Positions 5,718 through 42,242 of a stretch of DNA of 64,000 nucleotides are shown piece after piece. Each line of letters begins with the position of its first letter. Positions within the stretch are counted from its first letter, which is position 1. The notes under the pieces were generated by a model, which saw only the letters and a list, made by a program, of their open reading frames with translations, was not told the origin of the DNA and did no database searches. The position numbers and the translations under genes were made by a program. Origin of the DNA: Chloroflexota bacterium (GTDB taxonomy: Bacteria; Chloroflexota; Anaerolineae; Anaerolineales; Anaerolineaceae); NCBI GenBank assembly GCA_012798455.1, contig JAAZNC010000081.1, forward strand, positions 4,752-68,751. Reading direction: 5' to 3'.

Positions 5718-7025
5718 ATGTCCTTTAAAGAGTTGTTGTATAAATTCGAAAAGGAGAATAAGCGACCTGTACGGGTAGGGCTGTTGGGTGCCGGTCAAAT
5801 GGGCACCGGGTTGATCAGCCAGATCGAAAAAATGCATGGCATCAAGGTCGCCGCGGTTGCGGACGTACGAAAAGATCGTGCTTATGAAGCTTATCAGGAA
5901 GCCAGTGTCGACAAAGCACTGCTTGTGAAAAATGATGACGATCCCGAAAAAGCAGCACAGGCGGTCGAAAATGGCAAGCGCATTGCCTGTCACACTTCGG
6001 ATATGATCGTACAGATTCCCAACCTGGATATTGTGGTCGAGTCGACCGGTATCCCAGAAGTAGGTGCAAAATTCTGCTATGATGCCATCTTGGCACGCAA
6101 ATCTGTGGTCAATATGAATGTGGAGACAGATGTGGTGGTGGGCTACCAATTGGCGAAGATGGCAGCAGCAGCTGGTGTGGTCTATACCCTGGTAGCTGGT
6201 GACGAGCCGGGCTCTGTCAAAGAACTGTATGACTTCGCCGATACATTGGGTTTTGAGATCGTATGTATCGGAAAAGGGAAAAATAACCCGCTGCATCCCC
6301 AGGCTACTCCCGATTCGGTGGCGGAATCAGCCAAGGCACAGAATATGAATCCCAAGATGCTGGCGGCGTTTGAAGATGGCACCAAGACCATGGCAGAAAT
6401 GACCGCTATGGCGAACGGAACCGGTTATGCACCAGAAGTGCGCGGAGCGCACGGTCCCACCGTGGAGGTTGCAGATCTGCCAAAGGTGTTCTGCCCGAAA
6501 AAAAATGGTGGCATCCTTGAAACACGCCATGCTGTCGATTATGCCATGGGGAAGATCGCCCCGGGGGTGTTTATCATCATCACCACCGATCAGCCCAAGA
6601 TCATGGCTGACCTGAATTACCTGCATGTCAGCCACTATGGCAATTACTGGGCTTTGTATCGCCCCTATCACATGGCGAACCTGGAAACACCCATTTCGAT
6701 CCTGCGCGCTTTCTTCCACCATGAAGAAACACTGGCGACCCACACTGCTCCCACCGCCGAGACCATCACCATGGCAAAGCGAGATCTGAAAGCTGGTGAA
6801 AAAGTAGATTACCTGGGTGGTTACACGGTATATGGTAATATTGAAAAAGCTGAAGTGGCACGCCAAGAGGGCTTGGTACCACTCGGTTTGACCGTCGGTG
6901 GCATTATTACAAAGGATGTCAAACAGGGTCAGCCGTTGCATTATTCTGAAGTGGAGTTGAACGAATCGCAAACCATCTATCACTTACGCTGGCTTCAGGA
7001 TAAGGCGCTGGGGTATTTGGATTAG
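5718..7025 (+). CDS. NAD(P)-binding oxidoreductase with C-terminal SAF domain (COG4091, homoserine-dehydrogenase-like fold)
   Basis: Carries RVGLLGAGQMG (Rossmann), VESTG and a C-terminal SAF-like beta-clip (AKRDLKAGEKVD ... VPLGL). The start was moved to the ATG at 5718, seven nt after GGAGG. Confidence 0.75.
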   Translation: MSFKELLYKFEKENKRPVRVGLLGAGQMGTGLISQIEKMHGIKVAAVADVRKDRAYEAYQEASVDKALLVKNDDDPEKAAQAVENGKRIACHTSDMIVQIPNLDIVVESTGIPEVGAKFCYDAILARKSVVNMNVETDVVVGYQLAKMAAAAGVVYTLVAGDEPGSVKELYDFADTLGFEIVCIGKGKNNPLHPQATPDSVAESAKAQNMNPKMLAAFEDGTKTMAEMTAMANGTGYAPEVRGAHGPTVEVADLPKVFCPKKNGGILETRHAVDYAMGKIAPGVFIIITTDQPKIMADLNYLHVSHYGNYWALYRPYHMANLETPISILRAFFHHEETLATHTAPTAETITMAKRDLKAGEKVDYLGGYTVYGNIEKAEVARQEGLVPLGLTVGGIITKDVKQGQPLHYSEVELNESQTIYHLRWLQDKALGYLD

Positions 7026-37996: not shown

Positions 37997-39121
37997 TTAG
38001 TTCAGGTGTTTGATATAAACCCTGCGGCGCTTATGCTGGCGGGTTTCGAAATGCTTCCATTGCACCTGCACTGCCAAATTATCTTCCAGTTCTGGGTTGG
38101 ATTCCACAGAAGTAATTCCCATCTTGCTGAAGACTCTCAGTAAATGTTCCATCAGCATGGCATTCACCCCTTTGCCTTGGAAGTCATGGCGAATGGCGAC
38201 CAGGTAAAGATCTCCCTTATCATTTGTATGCAGTGCTCGCAGGAGATAAAGGAAACCCACTGGCAGAAGTCTGCCCTTTGATTTCTGCAGCGCCAGTGAA
38301 AGCGAGGGCATGGCGATCCCGAAGGCAACCATATGCTCCTGTTCATCCAGCACGATCGGCACGAATTCAGGGGAGATGAAGCCGAAATATTGCTGGATGT
38401 AAGCATCCATCTGCTCCCGGCTGAGAGGAGTGACCCCATACAGGTGTTGGTAAGCTTCATCCAGCAATTCGAACAACTGGTGAGCATAGCGCAGCAGTTC
38501 TTTTTTATTCTTGGCATTCAACAAATGCAGGTGATAGCGTTCTGCTACTACTTTTGCCAGTTTGCTGATCTTTTCCACTCCGCCTGCCGGAACCTTGATC
38601 TCGAATTCTACCCAGTCGATATCTTTGTGGTAACCGGCGTTTTCCATGTGAGTTCCGTAATAGGGATAATTGTAGATGGCTGCCAGCGTGCCCATCTCAT
38701 CGAACCCTTCCACTAGCAAGGCTTCCGGGTCCAAGTCAGTGAAACCCAACGGACCGTGCACCGCCTGCATGCCCTGCTCTTTTGCCCAGTCTTCGACGGT
38801 CTGTAACAATGCCTGAGAGACCTGAGGATCATCCACAAAATCGATCCAACCAAAGCGCGCATACGGGTTGCCCCAACGTTCATGATAACGCGGGTTGATG
38901 ATGCCTGCCACCCGACCAACCAATTTTCCATCTTTATATGCCAGCCAATATTTTGCCTGGCAGAATGCAAAGGCTGGATTCTTGTCTTTGCGCAGGGTAT
39001 TGAGTTCATCCGAGCGCAGAGTGGGTACCCAATAGGGATTGTTTTTATATAACTGGTAAGGGAAATTAACGAATTTTCGTAACGAGCGTGCATCGCTCGC
39101 TTCTTGGATGGTGATGGTCAT
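37997..39121 (-). CDS. uncharacterised ~375-aa acyltransferase-like protein (GNAT/FemAB-like family), paralog A
   Basis: The family signature FPYQLYKNNPYWVP ... NPAF ... FGWIDF ... VESNPELEDN ... WKHFETRQHKRRR is shared with the neighbouring gene. The start was moved to the ATG at 39121. Confidence 0.6.
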   Translation of the reverse strand: MTITIQEASDARSLRKFVNFPYQLYKNNPYWVPTLRSDELNTLRKDKNPAFAFCQAKYWLAYKDGKLVGRVAGIINPRYHERWGNPYARFGWIDFVDDPQVSQALLQTVEDWAKEQGMQAVHGPLGFTDLDPEALLVEGFDEMGTLAAIYNYPYYGTHMENAGYHKDIDWVEFEIKVPAGGVEKISKLAKVVAERYHLHLLNAKNKKELLRYAHQLFELLDEAYQHLYGVTPLSREQMDAYIQQYFGFISPEFVPIVLDEQEHMVAFGIAMPSLSLALQKSKGRLLPVGFLYLLRALHTNDKGDLYLVAIRHDFQGKGVNAMLMEHLLRVFSKMGITSVESNPELEDNLAVQVQWKHFETRQHKRRRVYIKHLN

Positions 39122-39262
39122 AAGTTCTGGTTTCCTTAATAAAAATAAATTTTGAAAAATACGATTTTTTATCATAACAGGGAAAATCAAAAAAAGATAC
39201 ATAAATAGTGCTCTTTCTCAAGCAGAAAGAGTGCTTTAACCTGCTCCTAACGAGTATTCATA

Positions 39263-40384
39263 CTAGGATAATTGTTTGATGAAGATACGGCGGCGTTTGT
39301 GCTGGCGGGTCTCAAAGTGTTTCCATTGCGACTGCACCTTGAAATTATCTTCCAGTTCGGGATTGGATTCCACCGTGCGGATGCCCATATCAAGGAATAC
39401 CTCCAGCATATTCGAGATGAGCATGGCATTGATGCCCATGCCCTGGTAATCGGGGTGGATGGCGATCAGGTACAGGTCTGCTTTATCGTTCTTGCGTAGC
39501 GCTTTTAGCACCGGGATGAACCCGCAGGGGTAGAGCCTGCCACGGTTTTTTTGCATGGCTTCAGAAAGCGAGGGCATGGCGATCCCAAAGGCAACCATGT
39601 GATCCTGTGCGTCCAGCACCATCGGGGCGAATTGGGTGGGGATGATGCCCAGATACTGGTCGATGTAAGCATCCACCTGTTCGCGGGTGAGGGGGGTGAC
39701 CCCATAATGCAGGTAGGCTTTTTCCATCAATTCAAAGATTTGTGGTGCATAACCCAACAGCTCTTTCCTGTTCCGGGGATTTAGAAAGTGCAGTTTATTG
39801 CGTTTGGCGACGATCTCCGCCAGCCTGCTGATTTTTTCCACCCTTTGCTCGGGCACTTTGATCTGAAATTCCACGTAATCGGTATCTTTGCTGTAACCGG
39901 CACATTGCATGTGTTCTTTATAGTACGGGAAGTGATATGAAGCTGCCAGGGTAGCGACCTCATCAAAGCCCTTGATCAGCATGGCTTCGGGATCCAGGTT
40001 GGTGAAGCCCAGTGGACCGTGAATAGCAGCCTGTTTTTCGGCATGTGCCCAATCTTCTACGGTTTTCAATAGTGCAGAAGATACTTCGAAGTCATCGATG
40101 AAATCGAACCAGCCAAAGCGGGCATAGCGCCGCTTGAAGCGTTCTTCAAAGCGTGGATTGAGAATGCCGGCGATGCGCCCGGCGAGCTTGCCATCATTAT
40201 ATGCCAGCCAGTACTTCGCCTGGCAATATGCAAAAGCCGGATTCTTGTCCCAACGCAGGGTGTTGAGCACATTGGCACGCATGGATGGTACCCAATAGGG
40301 ATTATCTTTGTACAACTGGTAGGGAAAATCCACGAATTTCTTCAACATTGGAATGGTCTTTACTTCTTGAACGGTGATAGGCAT
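39263..40384 (-). CDS. uncharacterised ~375-aa acyltransferase-like protein, paralog B (tandem duplicate)
   Basis: Collinear with paralog A along the full length. The start was moved to the ATG at 40384, seven nt after GGAGGA (the track start is a TTG at 40399). Confidence 0.6.
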   Translation of the reverse strand: MPITVQEVKTIPMLKKFVDFPYQLYKDNPYWVPSMRANVLNTLRWDKNPAFAYCQAKYWLAYNDGKLAGRIAGILNPRFEERFKRRYARFGWFDFIDDFEVSSALLKTVEDWAHAEKQAAIHGPLGFTNLDPEAMLIKGFDEVATLAASYHFPYYKEHMQCAGYSKDTDYVEFQIKVPEQRVEKISRLAEIVAKRNKLHFLNPRNRKELLGYAPQIFELMEKAYLHYGVTPLTREQVDAYIDQYLGIIPTQFAPMVLDAQDHMVAFGIAMPSLSEAMQKNRGRLYPCGFIPVLKALRKNDKADLYLIAIHPDYQGMGINAMLISNMLEVFLDMGIRTVESNPELEDNFKVQSQWKHFETRQHKRRRIFIKQLS

Positions 40385-40520
40385 ATTCTCATCCTCCAAT
40401 GGTGCAGTTTAACAAAATGAATGCATTTATGATAACAACAAGAATTATATTGTATCCAGAGGAATATGATAAAGAAGGCAGTAATTTTCTCTGTGACTAT
40501 GACAAATTACTACCAATTCC

Positions 40521-40549
40521 TTGACAAACTTCCTGTTCTCTGATAAAAA
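40521..40549 (+). promoter_or_regulatory. sigma70-type promoter of the glnA leader
   Basis: TTGACA (40521-40526), a 17 nt spacer, then TAAAAA (40544-40549). Confidence 0.55.
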
Positions 40550-40591
40550 TGCACCTAATTAAGTACCTTACAATTGCATATATGGAGAAAT

Positions 40592-40804
40592 AGCGGCTGG
40601 GTCTCACATGGTGAGATCACGAGGTGAAGGTTCCATCCTGCGAGGGATGGTTAACCCGGGTGACCGGGGAAGATCGGATTGATCAGCGGATGCCTTCGGA
40701 GTCCTGCCACGGGCTCCTTTCTCCCTTCCGAAAGAAGCGTTAGGTGAAACCCCGCCAGTGATGGTGGTGACAAGCCGATCGCGGTGGTCAGGATATTTTT
40801 CCTG
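40592..40804 (+). ncRNA. structured cis-regulatory leader RNA with glmS-ribozyme-like sequence blocks and helices
   Basis: Blocks occur in glmS order: AGCGGCUGG, ACGAGG, AUCGGAUUGAUCAGCGGAUGCCUUC, CGUUAG and GUGAAACC. Helices P1, P2, P2a, P3 and P4.1 and a P3.1-type pseudoknot can all be drawn. The comparison was made from memory, not by covariance-model search. Confidence 0.5.
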
Positions 40805-40852
40805 TTGTTATTGATGGAAGGGCAGCCAAGAGCGTTTTTATTTTGTGAAAAA

Positions 40853-40884
40853 CAGGCATGCCCGGCGTGCCTGTTTATTTATTT
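40853..40884 (+). terminator. intrinsic terminator (attenuator) 26 nt upstream of the glnA start codon
   Basis: CAGGCATGC-CCG-GCGTGCCTG 9-bp stem followed by TTTATTTATTT. No space is left for an independent glnA promoter. Confidence 0.75.
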
Positions 40885-40910
40885 AATTGTCAATGCCAAA
40901 GGAGAAAGCA

Positions 40911-42242
40911 ATGGACAAGAAAGAGTTATTTGAAAGAATTGAAGCGGATGGGGTTAAATTCGTCAGCTATCAATTTTCCGATGTGACCGGAAAAGTGAAG
41001 AGCGTGGATGCCCCGGTGGAAAGGCTTGAAGAAGCCCTGGATTATGGAGTGTGGTTCGATGGTTCTTCGGTAGAGGGATTCGCCCGCATTCAAGAGAGCG
41101 ATATGCACCTGATTGTGGATATGGATTCTTACGCTGTCTTACCATGGACTCCTGCTGACAACAAACGCGCACGTTTCTTTTGCGATATCTATACTCCCGA
41201 TGGAGAACCCTTCGATGGCGACCCGCGCGGACTGCTGCGCAAATGGGTCAATAAATTGGATGAAAAAGGTTGGACCTTTAACGTTGGTCCCGAACCCGAA
41301 TTCTTCCTCTTCCTGCAAAATGAGCATATCCACCCGGTGCCTCATGATGTAGGTGGTTATTTTGATTTTTCCTCCAATGACTCGGCTGCCCAGGTACGTG
41401 CTGAGTTGGTGAATGCCCTTAATTCTATGGGCTTGGAAGTGGAATTTGCTCACCATGAGGTGGCGCTCGGTCAGCATGAGATCGATTTCCGTTTTGCGGA
41501 TGCTCTCAAAACAGCCGACAATGTGATGACCCTCAAATATACCGTCAAAGCCATTGCTGCACAGCACGGGTTAGTGGCGTCCTTCATGCCCAAACCTATT
41601 TTCGGTATCAACGGTTCCGGTATGCACTGCCACCAATCCATTTTCGATGAGAGCGGCAGGAATTTGTTCTTTGATGCCAAAGATGAATTTCACCTTTCCA
41701 AATTAGCCTACGGTTTTATCGCCGGTCAGCTTGCACATGCCAAGGCACTGGCTGCCATTGTGGCCCCCACTGTGAACTCCTACAAACGTCTGGTGCCCGG
41801 TTATGAAGCACCGGTATATGTGGGTTGGGCGCAGATCAATCGCTCTGCTTTGATCCGCATCCCGCGCTACACCGTCGGCAAAGACAAAGCCATGCGCGCC
41901 GAACTGCGCTTCCCCGATCCTTCTAGCAATCCCTACCTGGCATTCAGTGCCATGATCGCAGCCGCTCTGGATGGTATCGACCGGGGTCTTACCCCACCCA
42001 AACCGCTCAACAATGTCAACATCTTCGAACTTTCTCCCGAAGAACGCGTAACCCGCGGCATCGAATCACTGCCCGGTTCGCTCAAAGATGCCCTGGCAAT
42101 GCTGGCAGCTGATGACCTGATCAAAGATGCCATCGGGGCGAAACTATATTCTGCTTTCTATCGTGCCAAAGAAGAAGAGTGGGAAGATTATCGCATTCAT
42201 GTCACCGATTGGGAAGAAGAGCATTATCTGGAGAGCGCCTAG
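40911..42242 (+). CDS. glnA: glutamine synthetase type I (GSI-alpha-like)
   Basis: Full-length GS sequence (FDGSSVEGF, GPEPEFFLF, HHEVALGQHEIDF, KPIFGINGSGMHCHQS, NSYKRLVPGYEAP). The start was moved to the ATG at 40911, seven nt after AAGGAG. Confidence 0.95.
   Translation: MDKKELFERIEADGVKFVSYQFSDVTGKVKSVDAPVERLEEALDYGVWFDGSSVEGFARIQESDMHLIVDMDSYAVLPWTPADNKRARFFCDIYTPDGEPFDGDPRGLLRKWVNKLDEKGWTFNVGPEPEFFLFLQNEHIHPVPHDVGGYFDFSSNDSAAQVRAELVNALNSMGLEVEFAHHEVALGQHEIDFRFADALKTADNVMTLKYTVKAIAAQHGLVASFMPKPIFGINGSGMHCHQSIFDESGRNLFFDAKDEFHLSKLAYGFIAGQLAHAKALAAIVAPTVNSYKRLVPGYEAPVYVGWAQINRSALIRIPRYTVGKDKAMRAELRFPDPSSNPYLAFSAMIAAALDGIDRGLTPPKPLNNVNIFELSPEERVTRGIESLPGSLKDALAMLAADDLIKDAIGAKLYSAFYRAKEEEWEDYRIHVTDWEEEHYLESA

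Follow-up and report, generated by a model that had tools for sequence, protein, structure and literature searches.

To our knowledge, no widespread natural ribozyme other than glmS employs a metabolite as its cofactor. McCown, Roth and Breaker reportedly assembled 463 representatives in 2011, all but two of them in glmS mRNAs, and are said to have described Deinococcus-Thermus variants with extra stems in the catalytic core and altered supporting substructures; that survey is not known to have described a terminator platform or a systematic association with glnA or glutamate synthase (GOGAT) genes. Reviews present the class as regulating glmS, or the production of glucosamine-6-phosphate (GlcN6P), through mRNA decay, and it has so far been treated as a single-purpose regulator of this kind. 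Here we describe a related RNA in the leader of glnA, the gene for type I glutamine synthetase, in a 64,000-nucleotide stretch of DNA from an Anaerolineaceae member of the Chloroflexota (contig JAAZNC010000081.1; the whole stretch is called the window, and positions are counted along it). Judged by its sequence, 40584–40797 belongs to a sub-family of predicted self-cleaving, glmS-type ribozymes from Chloroflexota (Anaerolineae).

Other RNA leaders resemble this one in function or in logic. The glutamine riboswitches (glnA RNA, RF01739, and Downstream-peptide) are likewise cis-acting RNAs before nitrogen-assimilation genes, glnA included, but have an unrelated small fold, are not ribozymes and occur mainly in cyanobacteria and marine metagenomes. 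In Clostridioides difficile, Lee et al. (2010) reportedly found a cyclic di-GMP-II riboswitch in tandem with a group I ribozyme, whose splicing creates a ribosome-binding site. There too, a natural ribozyme reaction reportedly rearranges an mRNA leader to alter downstream expression, although the ribozyme is of another class, the aptamer is separate and the outcome is creation of a ribosome-binding site, not control of termination.

The glmS ribozymes of Bacillus and Thermoanaerobacter (RF00234) share far more with the window element: A/GCG at the cleavage site, P1, ACGAGG, P2, P2.1 (CGA:UCG), a single-bulge P2.2 and GCGGAUGCC, which give the double-pseudoknot core of P1, P2, P2.1 and P2.2 around an A/G site, and the class periphery, in which P3 takes part in the P3.1 pseudoknot and P4/P4.1 is marked by A-rich internal loops and a GNRA tetraloop. 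The gene context differs: the class resides in the 5' untranslated region of glmS, whereas the gene downstream here is glnA, and no glmS gene occurs in the 64-kb window. The element further departs from canonical examples in several ways: a pair of hairpins interrupts the stretch from P2 to the P2.1 3' strand, a helix (P0) bridges the cleavage site, J3/4 holds a pyrimidine linker of 12 nt, and a terminator/antiterminator platform is attached; canonical glmS ribozymes are without a platform and act by mRNA decay after cleavage. Extra core stems are reportedly also found in the Deinococcus-Thermus variants.

A sensitive cmscan search of 40450–40950 returned one notable Rfam match, RF00234, at 40581–40792 on the forward strand (23.4 bits, E=0.0017), aligned over the full model (positions 1–167). 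Retained in this alignment are AGCG, ACGAGG, GCGGAUGCC, the A-rich internal loop AAA, GUGA and ACA-AG. No other RNA family scored notably, and the glutamine riboswitches RF01739 and Downstream-peptide gave no match in the same interval even with E up to 10. At Rfam gathering thresholds the entire 64-kb window yields zero matches; the glmS resemblance is sub-threshold in this sense, yet statistically real. An initial annotation, made from the letters alone, had threaded the leader onto the glmS fold and named RF00234 as the family to search; the full-model match, together with covariation in relatives (below), bears this threading out. Nearly all of its coordinates were confirmed on reading 40300–41100, where its core landmarks are present (P1, ACGAGG, the P2 strands, AUCGGAUUGAUCAGCGGAUGCC, P3 with its loop complement, GUGAAAC, and P4.1 with its GUGA loop).

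Using the GlnA protein, we recovered 80 loci from species-representative genomes, all Chloroflexota and mostly Anaerolineae/Anaerolineaceae. The closest has a GlnA identity of 96%, and the cultured Bellilinea caldifistulae GOMI-1 (L019) is among them. About 40 of the 80 carry a strict motif, ACGAGG followed by GCGGAUGCC, some 300 nt ahead of glnA. We aligned 36 glnA leaders (alignment A1) and built a covariance model, R1, which scores the window element at 214.9 bits, detects an element upstream of glnA on the coding strand in 44 of the 80 genome loci (110–223 bits) and finds no second copy in the 64-kb window. Invariant in A1 are the blocks A/GCGGCUG, ACGAGG, AGGUUC, UAA, AAUCG and UCAGCGGAUGCCU. 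The glmS-class core nucleotides A-1, G1, C2, ACGAGG and GCGGAUGCC are likewise invariant in the 36 leaders, the sole exception being C4, which is G here. The expectation that the conserved blocks would recur in orthologous glnA leaders, also raised in the initial annotation, thus holds, and the helices covary.

A pattern specific to the inserted-hairpin architecture gave at least 120 metagenome loci, and R1 matched all 80 of the pattern-derived loci searched with it. Built from glnA leaders, R1 also finds 13 elements directly upstream of glmS, a few of which reach 59–75 bits against RF00234. Among the matches listed (120 metagenome loci), the first downstream gene encodes GlnA in 49, GlmS in 20, an Ada-like regulator/methyltransferase in 14 (followed by EamA and glnA where checked), a glutamate-synthase-like protein of ~470 amino acids in 9 (weak PF01645 matches, 23–34 bits) or of ~850 amino acids in another 9 (PF01645, 352 bits), and nothing or something else in 19. 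Scores against RF00234 overlap between classes: 23–39.6 bits for glnA-associated, 29–75 for glmS-associated and 31–34 for GOGAT-associated copies, with three glnA-associated relatives passing the gathering score (L125, 39.6; L090, 39.2; L101, 37.9 bits). The glnA association is conserved across Anaerolineae, and a common lineage-specific architecture precedes true glmS, glutamate-synthase-like genes and glnA.

The fold was assessed in a model-based alignment of 45 sequences (A2), with the glmS architecture and its pseudoknots written on, and in an independent set of 80 metagenome sequences (A4). Fitting both alignments to the model biases them towards the structure; even so, the conclusion is secured by the slid controls and by how many pair types occur. 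Standard pairs fill 93.1% of cells in A2, against 43–46% with slid partners, and 42 of 62 pairs show double changes; A4 gives 96.1% against 39–47%, with double changes in 41 of 53. Not one of 500 shuffles reached the observed value on any measure. Both sides change in 5/7 pairs of P1 (6/6 in A4) and in every pair of the inserted hairpin P2c (5/5 in A2 and A4); the A2 figures are 2/5 for P2, 6/7 for the inserted hairpin P2b, 4/7 for P3, 4/6 for the P3.1 pseudoknot, 5/5 for P4 and 6/6 for P4.1. The P3.1 changes support a pseudoknot proposed at the outset between P3 loop nucleotides GCCAC (40706–40710) and GUGGU (40784–40788).

P2.1 in the window consists of C40620-G40676, G40621-C40675 and A40622-U40674, equivalent to residues 28–30 with 43–45 of the Thermoanaerobacter core (PMC7125110, a comprehensive mutational study). 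The P2.1 and P2.2 strands are invariant and complementary, and as invariant pairs they offer no covariation evidence. In characterized glmS ribozymes an A-rich P4 internal loop packs on P2.1, a GNRA loop docks on P1 and P3/P3.1 form a pseudoknot (PMC11602151); all three peripheral features are conserved in the sub-family, in the form of GAAA(A)C and ACAAG loops, a GYRA loop and P3/P3.1. A 'P2a' helix (AUC 40673–40675 with GAU 40681–40683) was discarded: it never covaries, and its 5' half is the P2.1 3' strand (PMC7125110). Two RNAalifold suggestions, C11-G52/G12-C51 and GGUUCC:GGAUGCC, fall in invariant columns, conflict with the known pseudoknots and were also rejected.

The two-hairpin insertion had been recognized in the initial annotation as a departure from canonical glmS. 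It is present and covaries but is no peculiarity of glnA leaders, the same insertion occurring in this lineage's glmS-associated copies. Like P0 and the linker, the inserted hairpins characterize the lineage as a whole, and its genuine glmS ribozymes carry all of these. An 'extra hairpin' once placed at 40725–40737 does not survive comparison; its CUUC/GAAG pairing is not maintained in relatives, and the stretch is linker strand.

P0, found by RNAalifold, is new relative to canonical glmS. It joins a strand just upstream of the putative cleavage site to the linker after P3 (Table 1), and both sides change in 5/7 pairs in A2 and 5/5 in A4. A divergent subclade (L064, 2704–3003; L071, 423–720) has a fully compensated version, AUGGAAU:AUUCCAU; its linker UUCCAU is also complementary to AUGGA of the glnA start codon region.

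The one core position at which glnA leaders break with the class lies in P2.2. The canonical helix is formed by C2-G56, G3-C55, C4-G54, C5-G53, a bulged A6 and G7-C52 (PMC7125110). In the window, where the cleavage-site context is AUA/GCGGCUG and the putative scissile bond joins A40592 to G40593, the 3' strand C40684 A40685 G40686 C40687 G40688 forms C40594-G40688, G40595-C40687, C40597-G40686, U40598-A40685 and G40599-C40684 and leaves G40596 bulged. The GCU:AGC pairing suggested earlier is therefore right, as part of a five-pair P2.2 with G40596 bulged. The 'extra nucleotide' reported beside the cleavage site is seen too, but it amounts to the P2.2 bulge lying at +4 where the lineage's glmS copies have it at +5: the bulged base is A(+6) in canonical ribozymes, A(+5) in the lineage's own glmS copies and G(+4) in the window element.

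We tallied positions +1 to +7 in 45 genome-derived and 80 metagenome copies; a tally of at least 120 loci shows the same pattern. In the glnA class (including ada-glnA) the sites are GCGGCUG (73), GCGACUG (3), GCGUAUG (3) and GCGUCUG (1), never with C at +4. The glmS class has GCGCAUG, GCGCAAG or GCGCACG, with C at +4 wherever the site is readable. Sites of the GOGAT-like class are mixed, the C(+4) type occurring in 5/9 before large glutamate-synthase-like genes among the matches listed; since C(+4) copies precede GOGAT-like genes, nitrogen genes can be served by a glmS-type core. All classes retain P2.2 by displacing its bulge. Most variants keep five P2.2 pairs and one bulge (GCGUAUG through a U·G wobble); in GCGCAAG and GCGCACG, +6 is unable to pair with A53 and four pairs are kept. 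The only conserved columns that differ consistently between glnA and glmS copies are +4 (G/C), +5 (C/A) and one covarying P3 pair, and the +4/+5 change (GCGGCUG against GCGCAUG) is what moves the bulge.

On the 3' side of the ribozyme, glnA leaders share a variable hairpin, a near-invariant block GGAAGGGCAGC (window 40816–40827), a hairpin with the conserved stem GGCAUGCC, a U-rich tract, a Shine-Dalgarno (SD) sequence and the ATG. The variable hairpin, P5, was already marked in the window at 40789–40804 and is present there; by inspection, relatives have a hairpin of different sequence in its place. GGAAGGG of the near-invariant block is the complement of linker CCCUUCC (40723–40729), and GGGCAGCC (40820–40827) is complementary to the terminator 5' arm GGC(A)UGCCC (40855–40863). 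Linker and partner covary as CCCUCC:GGAGGG (L103), CCCAUCC:GGAUGGG (L139) and CCCCUCC:GGAGGGG (L116, L143), and the antiterminator as GGGAAGCAU:AUGCUCCC (L029, L034, L042), GGUAC:GUACC (L038) and UGUC:GACA (L020). Duplex energies of own and swapped partners are -13.24 and -12.26 kcal/mol for the antiterminator, and -13.31 and -12.46 kcal/mol for the linker with the downstream region, 0/5000 permutations reaching the observed value in either case; these comparisons are inflated by related sequences and are supportive only.

A predicted terminator stem of 12 pairs, 6 of them G-C, occupies 40850–40876 and is followed by UUUAUUUAUUU, a tract interrupted by A residues. Nearly all glnA-class leaders have such a hairpin, and the terminator, together with the upstream pairings that compete with it, is conserved and covaries. 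The strong terminator before glnA in the initial annotation corresponds to this hairpin and U-rich tract; the antiterminator proposed with it, CCUGUU (40801–40806) with AACAGG (40851–40856), is, by inspection, confined to the closest relatives, and it is the pairing of GGGCAGCC with the terminator 5' arm that covaries instead. The stem sequence GGCAUGCC ... GGCRUGCC (40855–40873, palindromic) is itself conserved, not its pairing alone; the requirement for pairing with GGGCAGCC accounts for part of this conservation.

The linker was also considered as a pure anti-Shine-Dalgarno strand for glnA. The glnA SD is generic and shows no obvious covariation, and the GGAAGGG partner is better supported; in the window the linker could mask the SD in addition, judging by the complementarity of CUUUCUCC (40717–40724) to GGAGAAAG (40901–40908). 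Linker:SD pairing is convincing in glmS-associated members only. There the same linker is complementary, over 9–11 bp, both to the P0 leader strand and to the SD region (AUCCCCUCCUG with CAGGAGGGGAU in L086 and L131; UUUUCUCCUC with GAGGAGAAAA in L151).

Classical transcriptional riboswitch platforms have the same chain of mutually exclusive helices ending in a terminator near the start codon; the difference here is that the first relay helix, P0, spans a ribozyme cleavage site, so the trigger would be strand scission rather than ligand-induced folding. Characterized glmS ribozymes are already folded before the ligand binds and keep that structure afterwards, the ligand acting chemically (PMC11602151). 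A platform attached to such a ribozyme must therefore sense the cut, and P0 provides the means, as its 5' strand lies on the fragment that cleavage would release.

We modelled this by folding the window transcript with nearest-neighbour energies, ending it at 40864 so that the terminator 3' arm is still missing. The minimum of the uncleaved RNA has P0 (7/7 pairs) and the antiterminator (8/8) at -105.3 kcal/mol, against -104.2 kcal/mol with linker:GGAAGGG forced. The 3' cleavage product instead forms linker:GGAAGGG (7/7) and no antiterminator at -104.1 kcal/mol; forcing the antiterminator raises this to -100.6 kcal/mol, a cost of 3.5 kcal/mol. Over 38 loci, an antiterminator of at least 5 bp forms in 17 uncleaved and 5 cleaved transcripts, and an anti-antiterminator of at least 6 bp in 22 uncleaved and 35 cleaved, so that the relay is thermodynamically consistent with actuation by cleavage. 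Equilibrium folding of whole leaders was discarded as a discriminator, both forms giving the terminator; only transcripts truncated before the 3' arm tell them apart. In these models the cleaved state is robustly terminator-permissive, and the uncleaved state sits near a balance point at which the ribozyme tertiary fold would be needed to hold P0.

From this we infer cleavage activity, a ligand and the direction and kinetics of a switch, as follows. In the intact RNA, P0 would hold the linker, leaving GGAAGGGCAGCC free to pair with the terminator 5' arm, and glnA would be transcribed. On accumulation of the cofactor, most likely GlcN6P or a close amine analogue reporting glutamine sufficiency, the ribozyme would cut between A40592 and G40593 and the short 5' fragment bearing the P0 strand would depart. 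The freed linker could then capture GGAAGGG; with the antiterminator lost, the terminator at 40850–40876 would form and glnA would be switched off. The overall logic would be feedback repression: high cofactor, cleavage, loss of P0, termination before glnA. Glutamine is the product of glutamine synthetase and is consumed by GOGAT and GlmS; a physiologically sensible signal would be either GlcN6P, standing in for glutamine, or glutamine itself. A glmS-type sub-family member with cleavage-actuated attenuation of glnA is our best explanation of the locus, and one we believe slightly more than we doubt.

Several observations pull the other way. The 23.4 bits of the window element fall below the RF00234 gathering score of 37. 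Changes in the three P2.2 pairs beside the cleavage site are otherwise strongly detrimental in canonical ribozymes (PMC7125110). A6C did rescue C4A ~24-fold, C4A becoming the bulged base, which implies that relocating the bulge can preserve some activity; that rescue was only partial (PMC7125110), and the G(+4) bulge might accordingly slow or abolish catalysis. The U-tracts are interrupted in many relatives, and L064 and L071 keep the ribozyme and P0 without the GGAAGGG block, the GGCAUGCC terminator or a recognizable relay. P0 and the anti-antiterminator overlap by only 2 nt. The minimum-energy uncleaved truncated fold contains no antiterminator at 21/38 loci, and the energy gap in the uncleaved window transcript is just 1.1 kcal/mol, so the relay has to rely on unmodelled tertiary stabilization of P0. 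Full-length and cleaved RNAs both adopt the terminator state at equilibrium, as would be expected of a kinetically controlled switch.

The clean separation of classes at +4—never C in ~80 glnA copies, C in the readable glmS copies—raises the question of the ligand. Among conserved columns, nothing but +4/+5 and one covarying P3 pair tells the classes apart, and +4/+5 falls within P2.2, the helix that positions cofactor and cleavage site (PMC7125110). It could be that fold and platform are as described, cleavage being the actuator, but that the G(+4)-bulge core uses a cofactor other than GlcN6P, such as glutamine or another nitrogen-status amine; that glutamine synthetase, GOGAT and GlmS all make or use glutamine is in keeping with this. 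The remaining core nucleotides are nonetheless identical in glmS and glnA copies, the P2.1 cofactor-pocket strand and C2/G56 among them, GOGAT-associated copies show mixed site types, and C(+4) copies precede large glutamate-synthase-like genes too (the 5/9 above). A different cofactor is a reading that we consider rather unlikely, and a new ligand for the glnA-type RNA is possible but not indicated by its active-site and cofactor-pocket nucleotides (C2, G56 and the P2.1 strands), which are unchanged. The fuller proposal, that glnA-type RNAs form a distinct glmS-fold subclass in which the relocated P2.2 bulge retunes the ribozyme to another nitrogen-status cofactor (for example, glutamine) and cleavage actuates a terminator relay by releasing an anti-anti-antiterminator strand, we consider rather doubtful; if true, it would provide a second natural cofactor for the glmS fold and a previously undescribed type of expression platform.

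It is unlikely that the RNA has kept the glmS fold without cleaving, as an ordinary ligand-binding riboswitch or folding sensor in which a ligand-stabilized P2.2 and P0 decide between antiterminator and terminator. The bulge does sit beside the second P2.2 pair, where canonical ribozymes tolerate change poorly (PMC7125110), P0 directly abuts the P2.2 strand, and transcriptional riboswitches are typically built as such a relay of mutually exclusive helices. But a non-catalytic sensor would not need the invariant A(-1), G(+1) and ACGAGG, characterized glmS ribozymes do not rearrange on ligand binding (PMC11602151), and glmS-associated copies, of which some exceed the RF00234 gathering score, share the P0/linker design; moreover, a ligand that stabilized P0 would turn glnA on, an outcome that fits poorly with a signal of product or sufficiency. 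Conservation of the terminator stem sequence itself, and of the leader motif (U)UAACAAYUGAAUA, for which no RNA partner was found, would also suit a nitrogen-regulatory protein that binds the GGCAUGCC hairpin, the motif or both and controls attenuation, the ribozyme setting only mRNA stability as in Bacillus glmS. We think this very unlikely: pairing with GGGCAGCC largely explains the stem conservation, a change in the stem being matched by a change in its partner, and the loci examined show no linked gene for a candidate regulator. As for a decaying copy of a duplicated glmS ribozyme, a relic with no present function, the sub-threshold RF00234 score of the window copy is what it could explain, and compensatory changes across dozens of genera-level lineages around an invariant core effectively refute it, leaving it a negligible chance.

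Cleavage-actuated attenuation of glnA by a glmS-type RNA would widen the use of this fold. In many Anaerolineae it precedes the enzymes that make and spend glutamine (glutamine synthetase, glutamate-synthase-like proteins and GlmS), which suggests that an RNA enzyme known from amino-sugar gene control has been re-used for nitrogen assimilation, and hints at how a phylum that has received little study may regulate nitrogen assimilation. Attached to the ribozyme are platforms that covary, either a terminator relay or SD sequestration, and P0 across the putative cleavage site offers a concrete, testable route by which scission itself could flip a genetic switch. Positions +4/+5 and the one P3 pair define a minimal mutational test of changed cofactor preference or sensitivity. 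Annotation at Rfam thresholds misses the window copy or labels sibling copies plainly 'glmS'. A full-text literature search, of incomplete coverage such that a prior description is possible, found no report tying glmS ribozymes to glnA, GOGAT, Chloroflexi or Anaerolineae, and none of P0 or of a glmS-ribozyme terminator platform.

Table 1. Annotated features of the glnA leader, listed by position in the window
Feature	Position	Strand	Details
Sigma-70-type promoter	40521–40549	+	TTGACA 40521–40526, 17 nt, TG-n-TAAAAA 40544–40549
Conserved leader motif ACAAUUGCAUA	40573–40583	+	Family consensus (U)UAACAAYUGAAUA; directly 5' of P0
P0 5' strand GGAGAAA	40584–40590	+	Pairs with UUUCUCC 40718–40724; upstream of putative cleavage site; RNAalifold
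Putative self-cleavage site A(-1)/G(+1)	40592–40593	+	cmscan alignment to the glmS site
P2.2 5' strand CG[G]CUG	40594–40599	+	Mapped on canonical P2.2 of PMC7125110
P1 hairpin	40600–40618	+	Covariation
Core hexamer ACGAGG	40619–40624	+	Invariant in A1, Rfam consensus; C40620, G40621 and A40622 are the P2.1 5' strand
P2 5' strand GAAGG	40626–40630	+	Pairs with CCUUC 40693–40697; 100% paired
Inserted hairpin P2b, GNRA loop GCGA	40633–40650	+	Covariation
Inserted hairpin P2c	40655–40668	+	Covariation
P2.1 3' strand UCG, inside invariant AAUCG	40674–40676	+	Mapped per PMC7125110
CAGCGGAUGCCUUC	40684–40697	+	P2.2 3' strand 40684–40688, conserved GGAUG, P2 3' strand 40693–40697
P3 hairpin	40698–40717	+	Loop nucleotides 40705–40710 pair with 40784–40789 (P3.1)
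Pyrimidine linker UUUCUCCCUUCC	40718–40729	+	40718–40724 pairs in P0; 40723–40729 pairs with GGAAGGG 40816–40822 (anti-antiterminator)
P4/P4.1 peripheral domain	40737–40782	+	A-rich internal loops GAAAC/ACAAG, GUGA tetraloop 40758–40761; P4.1 at 40752–40767
P3.1 3' strand GUGGUC	40784–40789	+	Covariation
Variable hairpin P5	40789–40804	+	Scan; after ribozyme domain
GGAAGGGCAGCC	40816–40827	+	GGAAGGG pairs with linker; GGGCAGCC pairs with terminator 5' arm (antiterminator)
Intrinsic terminator (predicted)	40850–40888	+	12-bp stem 40850–40876, conserved stem sequence GGCAUGCC, then U-rich tract
Shine-Dalgarno region GGAGAAAG	40901–40908	+	Also complementary to linker CUUUCUCC 40717–40724
glnA, type I glutamine synthetase	40911–42242	+	ATG 40911; TIGR00653, 533 bits (cut-off 429)

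The promoter noted in the initial annotation (TTGACA, 17 nt, TAAAAA) is present and is also preceded by TG; a consensus scan reported an 18-nt-spacer variant with 10/12 matches. Most relatives have a TTGACA-17-TAnnnT promoter at a comparable position, and transcription in the window probably starts near 40556. The leader motif, which holds the palindrome CAATTG, is found in the upstream regions of most of 147 distinct members and in most family members, some glmS-associated ones included, sits downstream of the promoter -10. Pairing of the motif with the post-terminator UAUUUAAUUG was considered and rejected, own partners giving -3.91 and swapped partners -4.27 kcal/mol; the motif may act as a DNA operator or be recognized by a protein or an RNase. 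A mini open reading frame (ORF), AUG GAG AAA UAG (40582–40593), overlaps P0 and the putative cleavage site. It is probably fortuitous, as the AUG is not conserved and relatives have ACGGAGAAAUAG and similar sequences.

Gene order varies around some family members. In one clade (L043 617-3001; also L020, L050 and L051), the full leader (ribozyme, GGAAGGG, terminator) precedes a short ORF (MSKKRVV...), a gene for an Ada-like protein with an AraC helix-turn-helix domain and an O6-methylguanine methyltransferase domain, and an EamA transporter gene, with glnA ~2.2 kb downstream; metagenome loci L081, L084, L091, L104, L111, L113 and L137 have the same order. The ~470-residue glutamate-synthase-like proteins (L094, L095, L103, L105, L127, L139 and L145; the ~850-residue type is found in L116 and L143) match only the C-terminal part of PF01645 and share a Cys-rich N-terminal region, and from their sequences may be an unusual GOGAT-related enzyme. 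In L126 a C(+4) glmS-type element (reverse strand, 6324–6540) precedes not glmS but a gene for an MMR_HSR1 GTPase–SIS fusion, SIS domains being sugar-phosphate-binding.

A 6S RNA gene (RF00013, 62–79 bits) ends directly upstream of the leader motif and ribozyme in L119 (1028–1204, reverse strand) and L120 (925–1101, reverse strand) and, by sequence, in L128, L130, L138, L147, L149, L161, L163 and L188. Between the 6S RNA gene and the leader motif in those loci there is no recognizable promoter, so in some Anaerolineae a single transcript may carry 6S RNA, the ribozyme leader and glnA. In the window itself, the glnA leader is divergent from two tandem paralogous ORFs of ~380–400 codons on the reverse strand (37997–39202 and 39263–40399), both of which encode a C-terminal GNAT acetyltransferase domain.

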